Below are positions 11,698 to 60,149 of a DNA stretch of 64,000 nt, one piece after another (the first letter of the stretch is position 1; every line of letters starts with the position of its first letter). The position numbers and the translations under genes are program-made. This stretch comes from Escherichia coli. Its GTDB lineage: Bacteria > Pseudomonadota > Gammaproteobacteria > Enterobacterales > Enterobacteriaceae. The notes below the pieces were generated by a model that was not told the DNA's origin, searched no databases, and worked only from the letters and a program-made list of their open reading frames with translations. The stretch lies in assembly GCF_041248615.1 (NCBI RefSeq), contig NZ_CP158425.1; one strand, given 5' to 3'.

Positions 11698-12060
11698 TGT
11701 ATGCCTTAAGTAAACAAATGAGGTTATGACTTAATGAGTTCATCACTGTGCTGCAAATTTTGGTTTTATAATTAATATGGCTTAAAAACAGTGACATAAT
11801 TACAAATCGCATTTAGGTTGTGTACGCATTAAGTAAACAAAATTTATAACATCAATACTGACTTTATAAGATGAAATTCACGTAAATTACATTTTTGTTT
11901 ACCAAAGGTAATCAAAGGAGCGCGGCATTATTAGTGAAAACAGATCACTGGTGTCATATTGCATACAAAACTTAATATCCTTTAATCATTCTTCTAAAAG
12001 TTTAATATTAACGCTTTGGTTTATGAAAATTTATCCAATTTGCTCACCGAAGACTTTTAA

Positions 12061-15000
12061 CTTATTTAACCCCCTTTATCGCCAATCTGTGATTTTCTAA
12101 TGTTAGCCTACAGTTCTAGGGCCCTTGCTCCCATGATGCGAATCCTTCCACCTAATAAAGATTAACGCCTCATTCCTGTATGCCGGTCTTACGACGCCAG
12201 TGCACGGACAATTTTTGGTCATCACAAGGCCAGGCGGGAGATTTAATCAGGGCGTGGTGTTCCTTTGCAGCAGCTGCGGCACTGTAAGCCGAAGGCGGAA
12301 TTAACTCCTTTATCGCCATCTGGGGACGTCATTAGGGGTACCCCTTTTAACTTGCTCAGGACCATTAAGCTAAAATTCCGGATAGTGATTGACGTAAGAT
12401 TTAGGCTAAGCAGGTAAAGTGATCCCCGCTCCCGGGGTGACCACTTTATACAAAAGGCCGATCGGAAGATTGTCCTTAGGGAAATATTCCTTTAACACAG
12501 CACGGGCACTTACTGCCGCTGCCGGATTTAACCCCCTTAATCGCCAAACTGGGGTACTGTCCTGATGCTGGCCTTCCGTCCTGGGCAGGGTTGCTAACAC
12601 TTGCTCCCATGATACGAAATGCGCCAGCTGATACAGATTAACGTCTCATTACTCCATGCCGGTCTGCCGAAACTGGTGCATAGCTTTTTTCGATATTCGC
12701 ATGAACAGACGCTTGATTTTTTCAGGTTGTAATATACCTGAGCAGCATCTGAAGGCACTTTCAGTCGCTGTCAGATTTAACCCCCTTAATCGCCAAACTG
12801 GTGTTCTGTCCTCATGCAGGCCTTCAGTTCTGAGCTGGGTTGCTATCACTTGCTCCCATAATGCGAAATGTACCTGCTGATACAAATTAACGTCGTATTC
12901 CTGTATGCCGGTCTGCCGACACCAGTGCTCGGGCTATTTTCGGTCCTAACAAGACCTGGCGAGAGATTTAATCAGGGCGTGGTGTGACTGAGCAGCAGCT
13001 GGGGCACTGTTATCCGCTTGCAGATTTAACCCCCTTAATCGCCACACTGGGGTTCAGTCCTGATAGTGTCCTTCCGTCCTGGGCTCGGTTGCTAACACTT
13101 GCTCCCATGATACGAAATGCGCCTGCTGATACAGATTAAAGTCACATTACTGCATACCGATCTGCCGACTCCGGTGCATGGCTTTTTCCGATAATCACAA
13201 GGACGGACGGGTGATTTTATCTTTGCATAGTATGTCTGAGCAGCATCAGAAGGCTCTGTCAGCCACTGGCAGATTTAACCCCCTTAATCTCCAAACTGGG
13301 ATCAGTCCTGATAGTGTCCTTCCGTCCTGGGCAGGGTTGCTAACACTTGCTCCCATGATACGAAATGTGCCTGCTGATACAGATTAAAATCACATTACTG
13401 CATACCGGTCTGCCGACACCGGTGCATGGGCGATTTCCGACGATCTCAAGAACATATGGGAGATTATATCAGGGAGAGTAGTATGCCTGAGCAGCATCTG
13501 AAGGCACTGTCAGCCGCTGTCAGATTTAACCCCCTTAATCGCCAAACTGGTGTTCTGTCCTCATGCAGGCCTTCAGTTCTGAGCTGGGTTGCTATCACTT
13601 GCTCCCATAATGCGAAATGTACCTGCTGATACAAATTAACGTCGTATTCCTGTATGCCGGTCTGCCGACACCAGTGCTCGGGCTATTTTCGGTCCTAACA
13701 AGACCTGGCGAGAGATTTAATCAGGGCGTGGTGTGACTGAGCAGCAGCTGGGGCACTGTTATCCGCTTGCAGATTTAACCCCCTTAATCGCCACACTGGG
13801 GTTCAGTCCTGATAGTGTCCTTCCGTCCTGGGCTCGGTTGCTAACACTTGCTCCCATGATACGAAATGCGCCTGCTGATACAGATTAAAGTCACATTACT
13901 GCATACCGATCTGCCGACTCCGGTGCATGGCTTTTTCCGATAATCACAAGGACGGACGGGTGATTTTATCTTTGCATAGTATGTCTGAGCAGCATCAGAA
14001 GGCTCTGTCAGCCACTGGCAGATTTAACCCCCTTAATCTCCAAACTGGGATCAGTCCTGATAGTGTCCTTCCGTCCTGGGCAGGGTTGCTAACACTTGCT
14101 CCCATGATACGAAATGCGCCAGCTGATACAGATTAACGTCTCATTACTCCATGCCGGTCTGCCGAAACTGGTGCATAGCTTTTTTCGATATTCGCATGAA
14201 CAGACGCTTGATTTTTTCAGGTTGTAATATACCTGAGCAGCATCTGAAGGCACTTTCAGTCGCTGTCAGATTTAACCCCCTTAATCGCCAATCTGGGATT
14301 TTCTGATGTTAACCTACAGTTCAAGGCCCTTGCTCCCATGATGCGAACCTTGCAACCTGATAAAGATTTAAGCCTCATTCCTGTATGCCGGTCTTACGAC
14401 TCTAGTGCACGGGGACTATTTTCGGTCATAATAAGACCTGGCGGGAGATTTAATCAGGGCGTGGTGTGACTGAGCAGAAGCTGGGGCACTGTCAGCCGCT
14501 GGCAGATTAAAACCCTTTATTCGCCATCTCAAGACGTCATTATGGGTAGTCCTTTTAACTTTCTAAGGACCATTAAGCTTAAACTCCGTTTAGAGAATGA
14601 CGTAAGATTTAGGCTAAGCAGGTTAAGTGATCCCCGCTCCCGGGTTGAACACTTTATTCATCGTACGAGCGAAAGATTGTCCTTCGGGAAATATTTCTTA
14701 TACACCGCTCGGGCACTTACAGCCACTGGCGGATTTAACCCCCTTAATCGCCAAACTGGGGTACTGTCCTGATGCTGGCCTTCAGTTCTGGGCTGGGTGG
14801 CTATCACTTGCTCCCCTAATGCGAAATGTGTCTGTTAATACAGATTAACGTCATTTTCCTGCGTGCCGGTCTGCCGACACCAGTGCACGGCCTTTTTTCG
14901 GTCATTACATTACCGGGCAGGAGATTTTATCAGGGCGTGGTGTTACTGAGCAGGAGCTGGGGCACTATCAGCAGCTTGCATATTTAACTCCCTTAATCGC

Positions 15001-15640
15001 CAAACTGGTGTTCTGTCCTCATGCTGGCCTTCAGTTCTGGGCTGGGTTGCTATCTCTTGCTCCCATAATGCGAAATGTATCTGCTGATACAGATTAACGT
15101 CATATTCCTGTATGCCGGTCTGCCGACACCAGTGCTTGGGCTATTTTCGGTCATAACAAGACCTGGCGAGAGATTTACTCAGGGCGTGGTGTGACTGAGC
15201 AGCAGCTGGGGCACTGTCATCCGCTTGCAAATTTAACCCCCTTAATCGCCAAACTTGGGTTTTGTCCTGATGCTGGCCTTCCGTTCTGGGCGGGGTTGCT
15301 ATCACTTGCTCCCATCATGCGAAAAGTGCCTGCTGATACAGATTAACGTCATATTCCTTCATGCCGGTCTGCCGACACAAATGCACGGGCTTTTTTCGGT
15401 CCTTACAATACCGGGCAGGAGATTTAATCAGGGCGTGGTGTGACTGAGCAGCAGCTAGGACACTGTCAGCCGCTGGCAGATTTAACCCCCTTAATCGCCA
15501 CACTGGGGTTGCCTCCTGAAGTTGGGTTTCAGTTCTGGGCTAGGTTGCTAACTCTGCTCCCATAATTCGTAGTGGGCCTACTCAAGAGATTAACACCTCA
15601 TATCTTTAGACTGGACTGACGACAACGATTCACAGTTAGG
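12061..15640. repeat. Tandem array of about 14 direct repeats of ~249 bp with nested higher-order duplications
   Basis: The motif GATTTAACCCCCTTAATCGCCA(A/C)ACTGG recurs at about 12524, 12773, 13022, 13271, 13521, 13771, 14020, 14268, 14732, 14982, 15229 and 15478, with diverged copies at about 12062, 12300 and 14505. A 749-bp block is near-identical at 12650-13398 and 13399-14147, and the 12061-12600 flank is echoed at 14270-14810. Confidence 0.9.
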
Positions 15641-40542: not shown

Positions 40543-40562
40543 CATTAAACCCACCCTAAAGG

Positions 40563-40593
40563 GGAGAAATCCCTTCATGGGATTTCTCCTTTT
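40563..40593 (+). terminator. GC-clamped hairpin plus T-run 10 nt upstream of the next start codon
   Basis: GGAGAAATCCC ttcat GGGATTTCTCC then TTTT. Confidence 0.5.
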
Positions 40594-47931: not shown

Positions 47932-47965
47932 GATAACTCCCCCGCTTTTTGCGGGGGGGGTTATC
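47932..47965 (+). terminator. Long GC hairpin after the primase-like gene
   Basis: GATAACTCCCCCGC ttttt GCGGGGGGGGTTATC. Confidence 0.4.
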
Positions 47966-48005
47966 TTATCAATATTATATTTTAAAATTGTATTGATAAG
48001 ATAAC
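47960..48005. promoter_or_regulatory. Perfect 14-bp inverted repeat with 18-bp AT-rich spacer (operator-like)
   Basis: GTTATCTTATCAAT (47960-47973) and ATTGATAAGATAAC (47992-48005) are exact reverse complements. Confidence 0.4.
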
Positions 48006-48197
48006 CGCTTTCCTTCGTGATAATTACCTGCCTTTAAGGTCTTTTCACGGCTGAGATGCTTGCTCAGTTAAATAAATGTGCGGTACTACTGGCTATGGTC
48101 GGTTGTATGACATGGTTATTCCATAAACTATTAAAACCCATAACGGGAGTATTACCGTTATGGTGATGCTCGTCGTTTTACATCGGAGAGCATTTTA

Positions 48198-48797: not shown

Positions 48798-49676
48798 ATG
48801 AAGTTAGCTACGGACCTGGTAAAAGCTATTTTGATTAGAAATGGCGTTGAACCAGTAAATATAAGCGAATCATCTAAGTTATCTTTGAAACAACCACTGA
48901 CAGAACTTAAATTCAGTTTATATTTGCGAACTGAGCATTTATCTCACTTCCTACCCGGTTATGTTTATTCTATAAAAGAATGTCCACTGTCATATGACAT
49001 CGGGATCGAAATTCAGAAAATCTTCGAAAGTTTACATTTGTTAAACGAAGAATTTGAATCCCTCGGTTTTGTTTCTGTATGGATAGAAATGCATCAAAGC
49101 ATTTTTGAACAAAGTCGGTTTAAGAAAAGTAACTTTACTTTTCGGGAGGAAGAGGTCGAGCTTGCTAAAGGGCTTGTTTGTTCTCACAATTCACAAATAA
49201 GTAATGCGGCTTATTTCTGGCTTCAGCACTTTGAGGAGTTTATGATTTATGTTCGTAATAAGCTTATCGACCTCTTTCGAGAGGCCTATGACCTGATCCT
49301 TGGAATGCAGCAAGTATTTTTCATTCGGGAAAAGGAAGAGCTGTTGAAAACTATAAGTTATGGCGATGAGCTGTATGAGGTGAAATTCATGGCGGCTGAG
49401 CTTTACTCTATCGAACAGAACTTAAAGTGTTCTGAATCGATAAGTACAAAATCTCAAGCTTCGGCATATATTAACCGCATCCGTGAGTTTGTGCGTTCGG
49501 GGTGGAGGCAGGGCTATATAGTCTGCCATCATAAGCGAAGTAATCAAATTTCATCATTGTCATTACCGATGTACTTGAAAGATACGTCAGGCCGAAGTGC
49601 TCGAAAGCGAGTAAAACGTCTTATATCTTCTACAGTTTGTGGTAGAAATAAAGATTTAGGTCTTACAGATTTTTAA
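48798..49676 (+). CDS. Hypothetical ~300-aa protein, member 1 of the tandem paralogue family
   Basis: 292 aa; N-terminus (LVKAILIRNGVEPVNISES) shares a pattern with the four following genes. Confidence 0.45.
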   Translation: MKLATDLVKAILIRNGVEPVNISESSKLSLKQPLTELKFSLYLRTEHLSHFLPGYVYSIKECPLSYDIGIEIQKIFESLHLLNEEFESLGFVSVWIEMHQSIFEQSRFKKSNFTFREEEVELAKGLVCSHNSQISNAAYFWLQHFEEFMIYVRNKLIDLFREAYDLILGMQQVFFIREKEELLKTISYGDELYEVKFMAAELYSIEQNLKCSESISTKSQASAYINRIREFVRSGWRQGYIVCHHKRSNQISSLSLPMYLKDTSGRSARKRVKRLISSTVCGRNKDLGLTDF

Positions 49677-49694
49677 TTAAATTATACCCATGTG

Positions 49695-49730
49695 GGGATC
49701 ACACCCCATATGGGAGTGATCCCTTTTTTT
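49695..49730 (+). terminator. Hairpin plus T7 between paralogues 1 and 2
   Basis: GGGATCAC/GTGATCCC stem then 7 T; overlapping near-palindrome CCCATGTGGGG / CCCCATATGGG. Confidence 0.55.
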
Positions 49731-49746
49731 ATTGAGAGAGGATCAC

Positions 49747-50682
49747 ATGAAAATTATCGAAAAAATCATTAATGCCTTTTTGGTTGTTCAACATAAAAAA
49801 ATACAGGTTAAAAACATTACATTTTTAGACAATGGGCAGGGCATGTTCTCTGGTATGTCTTTTGATGCTGATGTTTCACTGGAGTTTATGTATGAATCAG
49901 CAAAAGCATATAGTTCTTGTTTCTTTGATATTCCCTTTCCAGGTTTTGAAGATGCAAATCTGGAGGAAATTACGAAATTTCAATTAGATGCTTTGAAGCA
50001 AAGAAAGAATCATTCTTTCTTTGTTAACCATTTGAGGTTTCCTATAGTTTTAAGGGAAGGGTGCAAAATCGAAAGAGGAGAAGTCTATTCAATTTCGAAT
50101 TGCACTTATAATAAAGAAAGATTGCAGTATCTTTTTTCTCAGGATATTTACGGTAAGTTGTATAATTCCTTAGAGAAAGAATTAAGCTCGTTTTTCTCAT
50201 TTATCAATGTTGAGGTGCACGAGTTGTTAAAAGATGCTGTATGCTTTGCATTAAAAATCCTGAATAAGATATCTTTGGATACACCTGAAAGACTTATTAA
50301 AGCTTTTAATTATCGTGACTGGTATTGTAGTTACGATGTTGAGCTTTTTAGGAAAGGCTTACCTGGTCATATTCTGGAAGAGCTCATTGCTCCAGATATC
50401 TTACTTTCAGACCTTAACGGTTGTAGAAAAATACTTAGAAATGCAAAACGATTTCTAAATGGACATACACAAACCAATTGTGTTTATATTAAATATGAAT
50501 GGTGGTTGGGGCCTGTTGATACCTCACACTCAGCTAAGTTGATGTCTGACAAAGAAATTAATAACCGAAGTGACTTGAAGAATTTTTCAAAGGTCTTTTT
50601 CAAAGAGTGTTTAAGTTCTGGTAAGTCGGAATATGAAAACCATCTTAGTGAAAAAGAACATGCGCTTCGCTATAATTATTAA
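49747..50682 (+). CDS. Hypothetical ~300-aa protein, paralogue family member 2 (ORF-track start 49732 is TTG; ATG 49747 preferred)
   Basis: N-terminus KIIEKIINAFLVV...ITFLDNG follows the family pattern. Confidence 0.45.
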   Translation: MKIIEKIINAFLVVQHKKIQVKNITFLDNGQGMFSGMSFDADVSLEFMYESAKAYSSCFFDIPFPGFEDANLEEITKFQLDALKQRKNHSFFVNHLRFPIVLREGCKIERGEVYSISNCTYNKERLQYLFSQDIYGKLYNSLEKELSSFFSFINVEVHELLKDAVCFALKILNKISLDTPERLIKAFNYRDWYCSYDVELFRKGLPGHILEELIAPDILLSDLNGCRKILRNAKRFLNGHTQTNCVYIKYEWWLGPVDTSHSAKLMSDKEINNRSDLKNFSKVFFKECLSSGKSEYENHLSEKEHALRYNY

Positions 50683-50750
50683 TTAAAATTATTTTCTCCC
50701 ATAGGGATTTCTCCCTATGGGAGAAATCCCTCTATTAAGAGGGTATTGAA

Positions 50751-51671
50751 ATGAATGCTATACAAAAGTTAGTTGAATCTATTCTTGTTAAAATGGGTTT
50801 TGTTGGCGCTGTAGTGGAAAATATATATTTGGATTCAAAACCATTTCGGCATATTCGATTTGTGGCTGATATTCCAGTAATATCTTTTCTACCTCATTTG
50901 GTGAAATATCTTAAGGGTGCAGACCATCTTTACAGTGGTAACGATGATTTGCATCCTCTTTTCATTTATTTTTCCGAAGCGGCTACATTAAAAGCAGGTC
51001 CTGTAAATCTCGCGAACTTTCGTTTTGAAGTTTCTATAGCTTCAACTCATTTACGACTGGTCTCAGAGCAGCCTGATTTGCTTTTCAAAGGATTTAACCG
51101 GGATAATCTAGAATACGTTTATTACCGCTCAGATTTGGCCTCTAAGGATCTTATACTAGGCCTTGTTGAACACGGTTCTCCTTTCATAAAACATCTACAT
51201 GGACTTATACAAAAGCGAATTTTAAACGAGTTCTCTCTGATTTTTTCTGTTCTTGAAAAGATTTTAGAAAGCGCGAAGCCACAAATTCTTGCTTGCTTCC
51301 ATAGTGTTGATTATGAAATGAACGTAAAAATAATAGCCGAAGCTATACCTGAAACTGTATCTAATCAGATAGTCACATCTGATTATATAGTTAATTCTAT
51401 ATCAGATGCGGACAAGTTTATAAATCATGTTCGTCGCTATTTAGCAGGCAGGGTAATGAAGAGGCGGATATACGCTGAATTAGATGTTTGTGAAGAAACA
51501 TCAAGTATTTCACTAGTGAACTTAGGATGCTTTACGTCTCCTCTGCTCGTTACGGAATATCAAATGTTTAAGCCACACTCTTCAGGGTTATATCGAAAAG
51601 CTATAAACAACTCCTTAAAACAGTTCAAACCAGAAATGCATGTACCTTCTGAAGAACTCTTTTATAATTAA
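50751..51671 (+). CDS. Hypothetical ~300-aa protein, paralogue family member 3
   Basis: 306 aa; N-terminus IQKLVESILVKMGFVGAVVENIYLD. Confidence 0.45.
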   Translation: MNAIQKLVESILVKMGFVGAVVENIYLDSKPFRHIRFVADIPVISFLPHLVKYLKGADHLYSGNDDLHPLFIYFSEAATLKAGPVNLANFRFEVSIASTHLRLVSEQPDLLFKGFNRDNLEYVYYRSDLASKDLILGLVEHGSPFIKHLHGLIQKRILNEFSLIFSVLEKILESAKPQILACFHSVDYEMNVKIIAEAIPETVSNQIVTSDYIVNSISDADKFINHVRRYLAGRVMKRRIYAELDVCEETSSISLVNLGCFTSPLLVTEYQMFKPHSSGLYRKAINNSLKQFKPEMHVPSEELFYN

Positions 51672-51737
51672 TCTAACCCATCCGGGAACCTGCTTCCCGG
51701 TGGGAAGCACTTCCTTTTTAGTCATGAGGTAGTGTAA

Positions 51738-52676
51738 ATGTTTAAAGAATCTGACCACGTGGAATTTGTTAGTGCCTTTCTTTATCAAAATTTAGGCCTT
51801 AATGTTTCCGCTGACGATATAACCGTTCAATTATCTGATACTTCGTTCGACAAAGTAACCTTTGATTACGATGTAGATATCGATAATTTAAATTGTATGT
51901 TGGATCTCTACATATCTGAGCTAATAAAGCACAACGCATCTTACTCCGATTCTATTCTTTTGAAACAAAAAATAATTTATTTTCTTGGAGTATTTAAGAA
52001 TTTCGGATTTTTTACGTTTGATATTCGCGGATATAGTAATACTTTAAGCCCAGTTAAAGTTATTGATATTGTTTCAATGATTATTAATGACTGTGAAGAG
52101 TTATCTAAAGCTAATTCTTCTACTGATGCTATAAGAAATCTTTATCTCGATAAAATGAAGGTGGATGGGAAAGTGTTAGTTGCGAAATTTGCACTTAAAC
52201 AGTTTTTTCATTCCGACTTTGGTGACTTTATCTCATTTGTCGAGAAAAGAATTACAGATTGTCTTAATGAAACTTTAAGGATTATCAAAGCTGTTGAACA
52301 TGGCTTTGTACGTGTAGGGCAGCATAAGATTAATCGCCGTATTAATGATGACTTAAAGTTATGCATTGATTTCAATACTGATGATTATCCGGCAAATATG
52401 CCAGATATATATATTAAGTTTAACGATACATTTGATGGGAACGGGGCGTTATATTGTGACAATGATGCCCTCATATCCCTCTATACCGATGTTGCTTCAA
52501 TTATCAATGTGCCGGTGATGATGGAAGTAAGATTGATCAATAAAAGAGGGCGTGTTGTCTGTGATTCTTCGCATTCAACTTACGTATCTCTCGAAAGTAA
52601 TGACCGATACAGAGTAACTGATCGCACATTACTAATAACTGAAGCTTTTGACGATTTTCGTAACGCGTCTCAATGA
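51738..52676 (+). CDS. Hypothetical ~300-aa protein, paralogue family member 4
   Basis: Clearly paralogous to member 5 (VDGKVLVAKFALKQFFHSDFGDFISFVEKRIT versus VDGQVMIARFALQQFWDTHFIGLITFVSESIT); same upstream context GAGGTAGTGTA(A/T)ATG. Confidence 0.5.
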   Translation: MFKESDHVEFVSAFLYQNLGLNVSADDITVQLSDTSFDKVTFDYDVDIDNLNCMLDLYISELIKHNASYSDSILLKQKIIYFLGVFKNFGFFTFDIRGYSNTLSPVKVIDIVSMIINDCEELSKANSSTDAIRNLYLDKMKVDGKVLVAKFALKQFFHSDFGDFISFVEKRITDCLNETLRIIKAVEHGFVRVGQHKINRRINDDLKLCIDFNTDDYPANMPDIYIKFNDTFDGNGALYCDNDALISLYTDVASIINVPVMMEVRLINKRGRVVCDSSHSTYVSLESNDRYRVTDRTLLITEAFDDFRNASQ

Positions 52677-52847
52677 TCCTTTTGCTTCAGTCCAAAAAAG
52701 TAACTTTGGTTGGCTGAAGACACTTGTCTATGACAATGTAAAATCTGTCGCTGGCATCTTCTTTTAGCTTAACCAAATTTTTATCTAACCCAGTGGGGAA
52801 GTCGCTTCCCTTCTGGGGCACTTCCTCTCAAATTCGAGGTAGTGTAT

Positions 52848-53804
52848 ATGACACATTCATCTGATGATAAAAACTATGTCCGAGCAGTTCTGAGTTATCT
52901 TGGCATAGATTTTGATGAGGCGGATATAGTATTAAGTGTTTGCCATTGTCAAAGTGACGAGCTTTCTTTTACCTGTAATATCAAAGCTATTGAACTCAAG
53001 AATGCTGTTGATTTATATGTCGATAGTATCTCTGAGAATGAAATAGAAGCTTTAAACAGAGAATCTTTAAAATCGCGACTCTGTTACTTTCTTGAGGTGT
53101 TTGACGCAGTCTCTGGTCAGTACCTTGAAATTTCAGGAAAACACTTTGCAACTAGTCGTTTTGAATATGATGATGTTTGTAGTGAAGTTCTTAGCATGTC
53201 TAATGATGTTTCTCAGTCGAAAGGTTATGACCGGGATGAATATAACAGACTGATGCAGGTTGATGGTCAGGTTATGATTGCCCGTTTTGCTTTGCAACAG
53301 TTCTGGGATACTCATTTTATTGGACTAATAACATTTGTATCTGAGTCTATAACATCGAGCCTCTATAAAGCTTATGAAACTTTTAGTGATATTAGTTTGG
53401 CTTGCTATAAACTGAGTGAATATTCTTATTCACGCTCTATCAACAGTGAATTGACCCTTAATATTTCACTTAAAGAAAATGACTTCTGTGAGGACCTATC
53501 TGATTGCTATATGGAAGATGAGGCTTTACCTTCTGGTAGGGTAATTTCTCGACGCAACAATGACTCCATAATAAGTATTTATGAGAGCTATGCTGCGGCT
53601 TCTTATATTCCGATGATTGCATCTTTGGAAGTCGTTGATGAATACGGCGAAGTGGTTACTGACCTCTGCCATACCGTTTATGTTTCAGAGTTAACCGGTG
53701 GGCGGATTAAAATCCACGACCGTAATGACTTAGTATCTGAAGTTTTCGATAACCTAAGAAATTTAAATCTTGCAGTTGGAGATTCAGTTTCACAAGCTGC
53801 TTGA
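52848..53804 (+). CDS. Hypothetical ~300-aa protein, paralogue family member 5 (ORF-track start 52842 is GTG)
   Basis: Paralogue of 51738-52676 along the whole length. Confidence 0.5.
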   Translation: MTHSSDDKNYVRAVLSYLGIDFDEADIVLSVCHCQSDELSFTCNIKAIELKNAVDLYVDSISENEIEALNRESLKSRLCYFLEVFDAVSGQYLEISGKHFATSRFEYDDVCSEVLSMSNDVSQSKGYDRDEYNRLMQVDGQVMIARFALQQFWDTHFIGLITFVSESITSSLYKAYETFSDISLACYKLSEYSYSRSINSELTLNISLKENDFCEDLSDCYMEDEALPSGRVISRRNNDSIISIYESYAAASYIPMIASLEVVDEYGEVVTDLCHTVYVSELTGGRIKIHDRNDLVSEVFDNLRNLNLAVGDSVSQAA

Positions 53805-56387: not shown

Positions 56388-57368
56388 ATGAGCCTGGAGA
56401 AACGTATGAGTTATGACGATTTGCCCTATTTTCGTGACCAGATTCTGGAACGTATCGACTCGCTTAAGTGTTTTCTTTCGAACACCCCCCCGCTGATGGC
56501 AAACCTGATGACTGTCTCCACCGTATCTCGAACAGAAGAGCGACTGAAGCAGGTTAAACCCATCAGGGTTAGTGTTAAAGACGATGCTTCGGTTGAGGAA
56601 ATTATTCAGGCACTTACTGACATCTGTGTGGATGACATAGAGTCATTAAGTCATGATTCCACCAAAGTGACCACTAAATACCCGGGTCTTATCATTGTCC
56701 CAGAAAGAGCAGATCTTCTCGAAAGCTTGATCACATCTATAAATGAAGCAAAAAATGATTTTGCTGCGGCAATGAGGCGTATCGATAATAAAAAGAATGT
56801 CCGTTTTGATAAAGTGCACAAGAAGCTCCCGGGCCTTGTCGCTATGCACTCAACAAGAAATGTCCTTTTCATCAAGTCCCAGCTTAAAAAAGTTACTTTT
56901 TCATGGCGGCTAAACCGAAACCAGGAAGTTAAAACAGCAGAGCAACTTGTGAGTTTGTTGGAGCGCAGGAGAGCCTCAGAAGTAAAAAATGTAGCAACTA
57001 CCAATTTGAATGTCGTGTCTAATATCGATAAGGCTTTACACCGTCTTGAATTTCACCCACTGAAGCAGGGCGAATCTTATCGCCTTTGTCGAACTAACTC
57101 TTTCCCTGTTCCGATTGCTCACATTTTTGCATTTAGGCCTGAAGGGCAGGAACGAAACGGGAATAAATATGCTGAGACTGATTATTCAGTAGTAAAAGCA
57201 TCCTTGCCCATTTTCGCAGCAGGCAACATACCTCAATTAAAAACGCTCTCTGACTGGGCTCCTGAAAACAGCCAGGGCCCGTCCAACCAACGGAAGCTGA
57301 GCCTGAAATATACAGAACTCGTGCCGGGGGCTGAGCTGGGCATTTTCATTGTCAGCCCCGAAAATTAA
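56388..57368 (+). CDS. Hypothetical protein
   Basis: 326-aa ORF. Confidence 0.4.
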   Translation: MSLEKRMSYDDLPYFRDQILERIDSLKCFLSNTPPLMANLMTVSTVSRTEERLKQVKPIRVSVKDDASVEEIIQALTDICVDDIESLSHDSTKVTTKYPGLIIVPERADLLESLITSINEAKNDFAAAMRRIDNKKNVRFDKVHKKLPGLVAMHSTRNVLFIKSQLKKVTFSWRLNRNQEVKTAEQLVSLLERRRASEVKNVATTNLNVVSNIDKALHRLEFHPLKQGESYRLCRTNSFPVPIAHIFAFRPEGQERNGNKYAETDYSVVKASLPIFAAGNIPQLKTLSDWAPENSQGPSNQRKLSLKYTELVPGAELGIFIVSPEN

Positions 57369-57377
57369 GGAACAACA

Positions 57378-58283
57378 ATGCAATGGATTTCCACAGCCAG
57401 CCAGAAAATCGATGAGCGTCTCTATCGTGTCTGCGTCTGGGTAAAAAAATATCACGCTGATGCGATTAACCGCGTTGTGCTTACCGTTGATCTAAGTAAA
57501 GCCCGACATGACCCTGACGAGGACCAGGTAAGAGCAGAGCTGCTGTGCGGCCATTATTTTTTGCTTCGTAAGGAAAACGCTTCGAACTCTGCGCCTGACG
57601 ATCAAAAGTTTGCTTTCCTGCCTGACGGGCGCAATCTGTGTTGGCAGACCGCAACCCCGGTGCTTCAGCATCTCCTGCTCAATAAAAACGTTCCTGAGTC
57701 GCTGAGGTTGCTTACGGACTACATACATATGCGTCTGGCCAGGCTGACAATGGTACCAATGTCCGGAACCATCATGAACGAGGCTCTGCTGGACAGCATC
57801 AGCTGGGTTAAGGTGGATTTGACCTACTTCTGGCAGTATGAACAGCTCAGCTCTCATCTGGGACCCATCCAGATAACCCACAAGGCACTAGTACGCTTCG
57901 GGCATCTGGCAAAGAATGATGAAAACTCCAGTGCCATAAGAATCCTGCGTCAGCGTCTGTCTTCAGAATTCTTACAAGAATTTCAGATGGCTGAGGATGA
58001 GCTAAAGCGCAAACAGTCGTTGATGGGCACCATGGACGTGAAAATGCTGTTTCATGCTCATTACCCCAGCCAGAAGATGCTGGTGGCTCGATATAAAAAT
58101 GGTTGGGTAATGGTGGATTGTTTTCTGTTTCATCATACCAAACCTAAGAAAAAAGCAAAAAACAAAACTACTGTGGCTAAGCCTCAACTTAAAGAGACTA
58201 AAAGAGAAGGGAGTGAAAATGGAACTGGGCATTATGGTGTGCATCGTGTTGTTACTCTCCGTGGCGGCGGCGTGGATCAGTAA
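57378..58283 (+). CDS. Hypothetical protein
   Basis: 301-aa ORF 9 nt after the previous stop. Confidence 0.4.
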   Translation: MQWISTASQKIDERLYRVCVWVKKYHADAINRVVLTVDLSKARHDPDEDQVRAELLCGHYFLLRKENASNSAPDDQKFAFLPDGRNLCWQTATPVLQHLLLNKNVPESLRLLTDYIHMRLARLTMVPMSGTIMNEALLDSISWVKVDLTYFWQYEQLSSHLGPIQITHKALVRFGHLAKNDENSSAIRILRQRLSSEFLQEFQMAEDELKRKQSLMGTMDVKMLFHAHYPSQKMLVARYKNGWVMVDCFLFHHTKPKKKAKNKTTVAKPQLKETKREGSENGTGHYGVHRVVTLRGGGVDQ

Positions 58284-58563
58284 TAAGACAGTTGATTTGC
58301 TCGAAAGATTCTATTTCAAGCGTCCGCTGAGCATGGAGTACGCGGCATGGCTACGTGTAATGTGTGCAGGCTTGTTATTGGTTTTTATTCAGGTTGCTCC
58401 ACAATTTACACTTCTGTATACCCTTAAACTTGTCACGCTTATTAATCTTGGAATCCAGACAATGAAATTAAATGGCGTGTACAAATATAAAAGAACGGGA
58501 ATTTTGCCTCCGGGAGGGGCACTCTCTAATCTCACCAGACTTAACCCGTTCAAGAAAAAATAA
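58213..58563 (+). CDS. Hypothetical small membrane protein (overlaps upstream gene; true start may be internal)
   Basis: 116 aa with two TM segments. Confidence 0.3.
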   Translation: MKMELGIMVCIVLLLSVAAAWISNKTVDLLERFYFKRPLSMEYAAWLRVMCAGLLLVFIQVAPQFTLLYTLKLVTLINLGIQTMKLNGVYKYKRTGILPPGGALSNLTRLNPFKKK

Positions 58564-58584
58564 AGTTATGCGCCCGTGAGGGCG

Positions 58585-59775
58585 CTATTCATCAAAGGCA
58601 TTTCGCATAAGCTTGATCATTGCTTTTTTACCAGCTTCAATATTACGAATGTAGCGCATAACCATTTCTTCATTCGACCAGTTCCCCATTTCCATAATCT
58701 GTGGTAGCGAGTAACCTTCAATATTTAGCTGTATCGCTCCGCCTACACGAACGCTGTGCCCTGTCCAGTAACGAGTTTTAGTCTCATTTGGATAAAGCTC
58801 ATTCCACATCTCTTTAAATGCTCGTAAAAGGGAATTTTTGCTGAGCATACCGGCATCGTCCACAGTGTCTTCTTCATCTTCATCTTCATCGTTCAGAAGA
58901 CTTTGCTTAGCACGATAGGGTAGGTTATGCCTTTTAAGAAGTTCAGATAGCTCATTCCCCTTACTCCGAAGCTTCCAGCCGGGTGGCATATAGCCTGTAT
59001 CATGGAAATTTACGGCCTGGAAAAGGAATTCATCCGGATGACTGTGCTGATCCATTTTCACGAGGTTCATCAATCTCAAGAGGCAGTTAGTTAACTGACG
59101 TGTCAGCCGGTAGGTAAGAAGTGTACTAATGTTCGTTTTTGTACGGTATACCGTCAGGTTAAATTCACCGGTCATACTATCCAGAGACAGATCTTTCAGA
59201 CGTATACGTCGAATTTCGGATGAACGGAGCAGTGTTTCAAAGCCTGTCCAGATCAGGCACAGGTCACGAAGTTTACGAACTGAGTTTGTAGTACTGCGTA
59301 ACTTTATCAGAGCCTTGAGATCGCCAATAAGAAAGGGAGTTGCCTGTTTAGTCGTCTTTCGCTTCCGGGCTTCCGATTGTTTTAAGGCTTCCAGCATGTA
59401 CCATGCTTCAGACGTAATAATCCCGGGCAGGTTAAGCCCTTTTTTATGGATACTATTTAAGGCCTGAAGACAGCTGTTTATGCTGCTTCGTGACAATTTG
59501 CCTTCAAGATGCCCCATAAACGCAAGCAGAGCGTCCTCAGACACGGGGAGCGAACTTACTGGCCAGTCTGTATGCAACCGGGCATTCGCCAGATACCATT
59601 CGTTCCATACTCGTAGCCAGTGCAGATAGGTTTTAGCAGTGTTGTATCTCAGATGGGAAAAGTAACGGATCAAGCGTGAAAGCTGTTTATCATGGTTGCC
59701 GAACGTTTCCAGCTGCTGATGCAATTCGCTTTCCGAAAACTGTCTGATCACTGATTGATTCTTCATCCTGCTCAC
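58585..59775 (-). CDS. Tyrosine site-specific recombinase (integrase/resolvase family)
   Basis: 396 aa; C-terminal catalytic pattern (HSVRVGGA... nucleophile Tyr in MVMRYIRNI); SAM-like N-terminal domain; GCGCCC gtga GGGCGC hairpin at its 3' end (58570-58585). Confidence 0.75.
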   Translation of the reverse strand: MSRMKNQSVIRQFSESELHQQLETFGNHDKQLSRLIRYFSHLRYNTAKTYLHWLRVWNEWYLANARLHTDWPVSSLPVSEDALLAFMGHLEGKLSRSSINSCLQALNSIHKKGLNLPGIITSEAWYMLEALKQSEARKRKTTKQATPFLIGDLKALIKLRSTTNSVRKLRDLCLIWTGFETLLRSSEIRRIRLKDLSLDSMTGEFNLTVYRTKTNISTLLTYRLTRQLTNCLLRLMNLVKMDQHSHPDEFLFQAVNFHDTGYMPPGWKLRSKGNELSELLKRHNLPYRAKQSLLNDEDEDEEDTVDDAGMLSKNSLLRAFKEMWNELYPNETKTRYWTGHSVRVGGAIQLNIEGYSLPQIMEMGNWSNEEMVMRYIRNIEAGKKAMIKLMRNAFDE

Positions 59776-59930
59776 CGGGATACACTGGTTTTAATTACAG
59801 GTCATTTTAGCACTCATGTACCTGGTTATGAACAGGGTGGAAACAACGAAAAAGGTTGTGAAATCGTTAGGCTTAAGTGAAAAATGATATTAAGATTATC
59901 CTTGGCCAGTTGAGGCCTGTCTAAAGAAGG

Positions 59931-60149
59931 TTGATTATGTCTGACACAAAGCAGTCTTATTTAATGAAATTCCGTAAGTGTAGTTCGTTCGAAACGCTCG
60001 AAAAAGTATTTGAAAGGTTATGTGAAAAAAACTCGGGTGTCGCCTCTCTTGAAATTTCTGGTGCTTATGATCATCGTAAAGCCGAACTGACAATGAAAAA
60101 GTTATATGACAAAGTTCCTGCGAGTGTGTGGACCTTTGTTCGCGAGTAA
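59931..60149 (+). CDS. Hypothetical small protein
   Basis: 72-aa ORF divergent from the recombinase; GCCCC tttc GGGGC hairpin downstream (60203-60216). Confidence 0.3.
   Translation: MIMSDTKQSYLMKFRKCSSFETLEKVFERLCEKNSGVASLEISGAYDHRKAELTMKKLYDKVPASVWTFVRE

Follow-up and report, generated by a model that had tools for sequence, protein, structure and literature searches.

Large low-copy plasmids carry tyrosine recombinases for multimer resolution, among them the ResD/rfsF system of F and the Rsd/crs system of the Salmonella virulence plasmids, in both of which the site adjoins the recombinase gene. Here we analyse a tyrosine recombinase gene in a stretch of 64,000 nucleotides (the window) from Escherichia coli contig NZ_CP158425.1 (assembly GCF_041248615.1); window coordinates are plasmid coordinates counted from the repHI2A gene. 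A reading made from the letters alone (the sequence-only reading) had supposed a large plasmid, correctly, since many IncHI2A/MOBH conjugative plasmids (Inc, incompatibility group) match the window at 100% identity. It had offered two roles for the recombinase: a multimer-resolution system, or the integrase of an acquired island that brought in the block of unknown genes at 36-58 kb.

The experimental evidence comes from the IncHI1 plasmid R27, from which Fournes et al., NAR 2025 (PMC11724359), deleted R0183, "a potential Y-recombinase" (tyrosine recombinase). Without it R27 was stable in the wild type, but xerC, xerD or ftsK(ATPase-) hosts lost the plasmid readily. The conclusion of that study was that dimer resolution in R27 is served by two redundant systems, the self-encoded Y-recombinase and an FtsK-dependent XerCD site, xrs (PMC11724359). 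The xrs of R27 and that of the IncHI2 plasmid R478 were both active (PMC11724359); the IncHI xrs is located elsewhere on the plasmid, outside the window. The target site, the Cre-type assignment and the regulation of R0183 are absent from that paper (PMC11724359). R0182 of R27 is hha (PMC7366339, PMC4853401), and the R27 open reading frame (ORF) adjacent to hha, at 159617-160798, is an ortholog of the window recombinase with 64% identity in a multiple alignment; the pHCM1 copy, near-identical to R0183, has 62.5% amino-acid identity to it by tblastn. Since R0183 is the hha-adjacent ortholog with the stability phenotype, the suggestion of a multimer-resolution system is borne out to the extent that deletion of this ortholog destabilises the plasmid in the three mutant hosts.

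We consider it probable that the recombinase is the IncHI backbone's own Cre-type dimer resolvase, under predicted LexA control, its role in IncHI2 being drawn by analogy from the IncHI1 ortholog. An enzyme of this type would convert dimers arising by homologous recombination back to plasmid monomers, as a second system beside host XerCD/FtsK acting on the plasmid's own xrs. Its expression would be kept low by LexA and would rise in the SOS response, a time when RecA activity would make dimers likelier and division would be delayed. The basic function is already published for the IncHI1 ortholog, and the feature is ordinary in kind; what goes beyond the literature is the Cre-type assignment, the linkage to tus and hha, the lack of a nearby lox-like site and the conserved LexA-type operator. 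No report of a LexA-controlled plasmid multimer-resolution recombinase was found in the literature searched.

The Cre-type assignment rests on sequence and predicted fold. The protein matches Pfam Phage_integrase (PF00589) with 50.9 bits against a cut-off of 27.1 (E 2e-13). In an alignment of 10 family members with Cre, the catalytic residues R181, K210, H337, R340, W363 and Y372 are invariant and align with Cre R173, K201, H289, R292, W315 and Y324; the list is the one used for defining Cre-type enzymes (PMC10250229). A tryptophan stands for the second conserved histidine, W363 in GNWSN aligning with Cre W315 in GGWTN. A sequence search of the PDB gave, at E <= 0.01, Cre and its engineered derivative Tre as sole matches (E 1.8e-23), spanning query residues 37-253 (the N-terminal domain) and 331-389 (the C-terminal motifs). 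When an AlphaFold model of the recombinase (mean predicted local distance difference test score 75) was used for a fold search of the PDB, the best 33 matches were all Cre or Tre (E 2.5e-16), followed by integron integrase (1.7e-7) and XerH (4.7e-7). Phage records that match number 25 of 50,697, and among the 15 listed the annotated ones are Cre of P1/P7-type phages, at about 25.5% identity. Compared with Cre the family has about 45 extra residues of its own (roughly 271-314), which include an acidic run at 293-304 and for which model confidence is low.

The sequence-only reading had posed a choice between Xer-like and phage integrase, and the protein is neither. It scores 17.1 bits on the NCBIfam XerC equivalog model (cut-off 335) and 15.9 bits on archaeal XerA (cut-off 220), the NCBIfam Xer and invertase models all being failed widely, and no dif-like 28-bp site with a conserved XerD arm occurs in the window at <=3 mismatches. 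By sequence and predicted fold the recombinase is closest to P1 Cre.

The predicted control of the gene comes from a promoter and an operator-like element upstream of it (Table 1). The promoter is a consensus prediction from a promoter scan, and all lineages examined have its extended -10, TGnTAnnAT. IncHI1, IncHI2 and IncHI3 share a conserved stretch of about 95 bp before the start codon, even where foreign DNA abuts. The LexA-like 20-mer begins 1 nt, and its 16-nt core 3 nt, after the predicted extended -10 in the window, and across lineages the core begins 2-4 nt after it. The gammaproteobacterial LexA box is CTGT-N8-ACAG (PMC3108266), which CTGTAATTAAAACCAG matches. A CTGT-N8-(A/C)CAG or CTG-N10-CAG box, 1-4 nt past the -10 hexamer, is kept in nine of ten lineages at 36-100% protein identity; the arrangement recurs in IncHI1, IncHI3, an R478-type IncHI2 sublineage, four metagenomic lineages (42-60%), Rahnella (36%) and a Klebsiella clade (37%); the half-sites CTG and CAG are fixed and the interior varies among lineages. 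On a LexA weight matrix the window box reaches 14.3 bits, ranking second among all 20-mers of the window; the range is 13.6-20 bits for ortholog boxes and 7.5-23.5 bits, leave-one-out, for the E. coli boxes of the matrix. Markov shuffles give 0.22 expected matches of the window box's strength per 64 kb. With a LexA-type operator over the transcription start, the recombinase is predicted to be SOS-inducible, and we infer that LexA represses its promoter.

Several points weigh against a LexA-controlled Cre-type resolvase in IncHI2. The stability experiment concerns the IncHI1 ortholog and not the IncHI2 gene. The weight matrix was built from 22 E. coli boxes of the literature, only three of them checked on the K-12 sequence, and 14.3 bits lies in the lower part of the known-box range. 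In Photorhabdus the left half-site is degenerate, CTAT (CTA for CTG), and in the window a second promoter-like site lies upstream, at 59923-59895. The microarray signal of R0183 is clear without SOS induction (1567 and 3694 units), so any LexA repression may be partial. As to the target, Cre-type sites are usually sought no more than 1 kb from the gene, as inverted repeats of 13-15 nt around an 8-nt spacer (PMC10250229); no lox-like inverted repeat was found within about 3 kb of the gene in IncHI2 or IncHI1, and the 4.8-kb module has none in which 13-nt arms, complementary at 10 or more of 13 positions, enclose a spacer of 6-8 nt.

The element might instead be the site of another protein, whether the recombinase itself in autoregulation or a plasmid regulator, or a feature of the RNA 5' end. 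Transposon and plasmid tyrosine recombinases often autoregulate at promoter-overlapping sites; moreover, the CTGT-N8-(A/C)CAG pattern alone is not enriched (five matches in the window against 2.7 expected), and the window site has five mismatches to the idealised 16-mer. We nevertheless judge this unlikely. Only the LexA-contacted CTG and CAG are fixed while the AT-rich interior drifts, as expected of a LexA operator, and the flanks do not extend the symmetry, unlike a 13-nt recombinase arm. The bit scores of the ortholog boxes on the LexA matrix also speak for LexA, as does its location across the transcription start, a classical one for an operator and similar to that of LexA boxes overlapping the -10 of intI promoters (PMC3108266).

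Two further observations concern boxes of this kind. In the Klebsiella IncFIB/IncHI1B plasmid NZ_CP054763.1 (locus L004, 5960-7900), a group II intron with a reverse-transcriptase ORF separates the LexA-like box from the recombinase homolog's start codon; the intron has the orientation of the homolog, and its GTGCG 5' end directly follows the box. The window's best LexA-box-like 20-mer is TGCTGGAATTACATACAGCG at 2916-2935 (17.6 bits), inside a TraE/TraK-family (trhE-like) coding region; it may be a chance match or a real site.

The search for a recombination site gave one weak candidate. The strongest lox-like repeat in the window is an AT-rich palindrome at 47959-48006, with 20-nt arms carrying two mismatches and an 8-nt spacer, just after the terminator of the toprim gene in an intergenic region 89% conserved across IncHI1, IncHI2 and IncHI3. 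For the IncHI1 and IncHI3 loci, too, the top match is its equivalent; the arms have one sequence in IncHI2 and another in IncHI1/IncHI3, with the symmetry kept. Counting against it, the spacer varies (6, 7 or 8 nt). BLAST with the IncHI2 intergenic region recovered only IncHI1, IncHI2 and IncHI3 plasmids, and the Photorhabdus plasmid has a different palindrome at the equivalent position. An apparent breakpoint beside the palindrome proved to be an IS903B insertion.

Another palindrome, GCTAATGT-N6-ACATTAGC, occurs as two copies flanking a 158-amino-acid ORF in R27 (L013 18517-18545 and 19056-19089) and in Klebsiella (L004 216-253 and 762-789). It was rejected as a target, the ORF being found in 3254 records of plasmids diverse in size and host, against 2835 with the recombinase, and the palindrome being absent from the window. 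Many of the records with the ORF are smaller E. coli and Salmonella plasmids, apparently not IncHI, and the two copies are probably operator sites of the gene of the 158-amino-acid ORF, not linked to the recombinase. The hairpin at the 3' end of the recombinase gene (Table 1) was likewise rejected as a lox-like target, for it has a 4-nt loop and is a structure of transcript-end type. No inverted-repeat candidate recurs at the same relative position across nine lineages.

Hosts mutant in xer or ftsK are chronically SOS-induced, and this could switch the gene on exactly where the stability effect was seen. One may ask whether the main role is an SOS-triggered rearrangement (inversion, excision, fusion at dispersed sites, or processing after conjugative entry), the effect in xer mutants being secondary. 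Operators of the LexA type, unusual in resolution systems, are typical of integron integrases (PMC3108266); the gene has no single lox-like site beside it; and Cre has more than one role in P1 (discussed in PMC11724359). Yet the window yielded no repeated pair of candidate sites, about 1400 plasmids have a collinear IncHI backbone with no recurrent inversion noticed at the locus, and the published phenotype is the one expected of a dimer resolvase (PMC11724359). We regard such a main role as improbable and keep to dimer resolution. For a fuller statement our confidence is a little above even: IncHI-type plasmids would carry an SOS-gated Cre-type recombinase, LexA holding the resolvase down until dimers become a greater risk through DNA damage or, possibly, conjugative entry; its target would not be a gene-adjacent lox-type palindrome; and its module would also encode a plasmid Tus protein and an RNase H-fold protein.

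The island reading drew on the position of the gene, at the end of a long co-directional unannotated block and convergent to it. That 36-58 kb "cargo" is conserved IncHI backbone, syntenic in IncHI1, IncHI2 and IncHI3. Plasmid records with the 22.5-kb block (36-58.5 kb) number 1421 (1131 with identity of at least 99%, 284 at 60-80%) and those with the recombinase region 1418, with 284 again in the 60-80% band, so that the variable presence expected of an island among relatives is not seen. Its gene order is common to pHCM1 and R27 (IncHI1), the Klebsiella IncHI1B plasmid and the Photorhabdus plasmid: AAA ATPase, DUF3150, VWA and toprim genes, then small ORFs, then the tus-like gene, two ORFs, the recombinase and hha. 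The block is placed between Tra2 genes and other backbone genes. As for att-like direct repeats flanking it, the longest exact word common to the two block boundaries is a 12-mer in either orientation, which is modal for shuffled sequence, and the window holds no tRNA or tmRNA gene. Thus, of what the sequence-only reading had set against an island, the uniform presence of the cargo in relatives and the lack of flanking repeats were found, whereas clustering with XerCD-type resolvases was not, the protein clustering with Cre. Given co-occurrence, synteny, the lack of repeats and of a tRNA gene, and a protein that is Cre-type and not lambda/P4-type, the idea that a genomic island, with the recombinase as its integrase, brought the 36-58 kb genes into the plasmid is in practice refuted, and we give it almost no weight.

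What surrounds the recombinase is a conserved gene set. A protein search gave only 22 clusters of recombinase relatives, none specifically named. In plasmid records the family occurs in IncHI2 at 95% identity or more, in IncHI1 and IncHI3 at 62-66%, and in about 1400 Klebsiella IncFIB/IncHI1B-type plasmids at 37%. With hha on one side and, on the other, small ORFs followed by a Pfam Ter (Tus-like) gene, the arrangement holds down to 36% identity (Rahnella) and is seen in R27, pHCM1, IncHI3, Photorhabdus, Rahnella and metagenomic lineages; linkage to the tus-like gene was judged in lineages whose locus reaches that far, the short L009 contig ending earlier. The tus-like gene, the two small ORFs, the recombinase and hha form a conserved module, probably for plasmid maintenance (Table 1). 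The E. coli Ter core GTTGTAAC is not enriched, and GC skew does not change sign at the module. An Rfam search of the whole window was negative, and IncHI1 and IncHI2 show no conservation in the noncoding DNA on the far side of hha or in that 5' of tus.

Table 1. Coordinates of the recombinase gene, its control elements and its neighbours in the window
Feature	Position	Strand	Details
Plasmid Tus-like gene	56406..57368	plus	Pfam Ter, E 4.3e-19
ORF 3' of the tus-like gene	57378..58283	plus	301 amino acids; end overlapped by the 114-amino-acid ORF
Conserved ORF with hydrophobic stretches	58219..58563	plus	114 amino acids; overlaps the end of the 301-amino-acid ORF
GC hairpin GCGCCC-GTGA-GGGCGC	58570..58585		Between convergent genes; final base overlaps the recombinase stop codon
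Cre-type tyrosine recombinase gene	58585..59766	minus	393 amino acids; WP_000795946 (RefSeq)
Shine-Dalgarno-like GGTGA	59772..59776	minus	5 nt 5' of the ATG at 59766; GGTG kept in IncHI1 and IncHI3
LexA (SOS) box-like operator ACCTGTAATTAAAACCAGTG	59783..59802	minus	16-nt core CTGTAATTAAAACCAG at 59785-59800; covers the expected transcription start
Sigma-70-like recombinase promoter (predicted)	59804..59832	minus	-35 TTCATA at 59832-59827; 17-nt spacer; extended -10 TGcTAAAAT, hexamer at 59809-59804
hha (Hha/YmoA family)	59937..60149	plus	70 amino acids; Pfam HHA, E 8.6e-19; R0182 of R27; recombinase-linked in all lineages

In one relative the hha side of the module is replaced. In the Klebsiella IncHI1B plasmid NZ_CP073055.1 (L003, 1-11900), a traG-copG-trbBCDEJLFGI-DUF2274 block stands in place of hha and stops at a T-rich motif some 95 bp before the recombinase start; it resembles the end of what we take to be a Tn4371-type conjugative element. 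The foreign DNA at 95 bp in this IncHI3 plasmid was set aside as not related to the recombinase.

The layout around the gene is largely as first read from the letters. The recombinase is convergent to the unknown-gene block, whose plus-strand ORFs end at 58563, and divergent from a small gene, now recognised as the Hha/YmoA gene. The ORF given at 396 amino acids is real, and in the ORF listing of the window it runs on the minus strand from 58585 to 59775 with a GTG start; the length is probably not 396. In RefSeq and in all orthologs the start is the ATG at 59766, the GTG at 59775 being in frame with it, and the IncHI1 and IncHI3 orthologs also have 393 amino acids. The conserved ATG and the GGTG(A) motif upstream make 393 the likelier length.

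The GC hairpin that the recombinase shares at its 3' end with the convergent genes also exists, with folding energies of -13.7 kcal/mol on the plus strand (z -2.1) and -13.1 kcal/mol on the minus strand (z -2.8), and its stem is kept in IncHI1. A terminator scan did not call it, because no T-run directly follows the stem; it is a probable bidirectional transcript end or stabiliser. In the 39-56 kb block, three hairpins related to one another, GC-rich and with stems of the type GGGAGAAATCCC or GGGATCACACCC, sit between ORFs that run in the same direction (40559-40593, 49687-49723 and 50693-50733). One of them has a perfect 15-nt stem and a 4-nt loop, and all three are probably transcript-end or stabiliser structures too.

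The window holds other elements apart from the module. The palindromic 11-mer AAAGTWACTTT has 16 copies against 0.11 expected, starting at 987, 4825, 7134, 19052, 21126, 24093, 28180, 29363, 31727, 38250, 38929, 45381, 49126, 52697, 56889 and 60340. About half are intergenic or at gene starts, upstream of htdT, parM, trhF, trhU, the 39.2-kb block and a coiA-like gene; R27 and one metagenomic lineage likewise have the motif 5' of their coiA-like gene. A plasmid-wide regulator probably uses the motif as its operator. At 12060-15600, between a TraC-family gene and parA, lies a tandem array of about 249-bp repeats (some 10-13 copies, 60-100% identity) with no annotated coding sequence in the plasmid record. 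Five consecutive co-directional ORFs of about 290-320 amino acids at 48798-53804, with gaps of about 60-170 bp, look from their layout like a paralogous series.

In Enterobacterales, resistance to antibiotics and metals has major carriers in the IncHI2 plasmids, whose stability systems set how long resistance persists without selection. If the reading as a Cre-type, XerCD-redundant and probably SOS-inducible resolvase is true, it would link plasmid maintenance to DNA-damaging antibiotics. A Cre relative whose target is apparently not lox-like is also a possible new recombination tool.

Among known systems the nearest to this locus is R27 R0183, an ortholog equal in length, flanked alike (by hha on one side, by two ORFs and the tus-like gene on the other) and with the same promoter and LexA-like box; R27 differs in a RepFIA/IS1 segment inserted beyond hha, and the stability data are for R27, whereas the IncHI2 copy is known from sequence. 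Integron integrases (IntI) share with it the tyrosine recombinase class and a LexA box overlapping the core promoter (PMC3108266); their fold match is nine orders of magnitude weaker than that of Cre, and the IncHI locus has no attI/attC array and a neighbouring block that is fixed, not variable. XerC and XerD are likewise tyrosine recombinases that resolve replicon dimers, and IncHI plasmids use the XerCD route too. They differ in being host-encoded and FtsK-controlled; the IncHI protein reaches 17 bits against the XerC cut-off of 335, XerH and XerA fall far below Cre in the fold search, and the window has no dif-like site. P1 Cre is the best match in both sequence and fold, with the R-K-H-R-W-Y set including the tryptophan and the two-domain layout, and it resolves dimers of a low-copy replicon (PMC11724359). 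Against Cre, the IncHI protein has only about 25% identity and the extra stretch of about 45 residues that includes the acidic run, in a part of the model of low confidence, and its gene has no nearby 13-8-13 site and carries instead a LexA-type operator and linkage to tus and hha.

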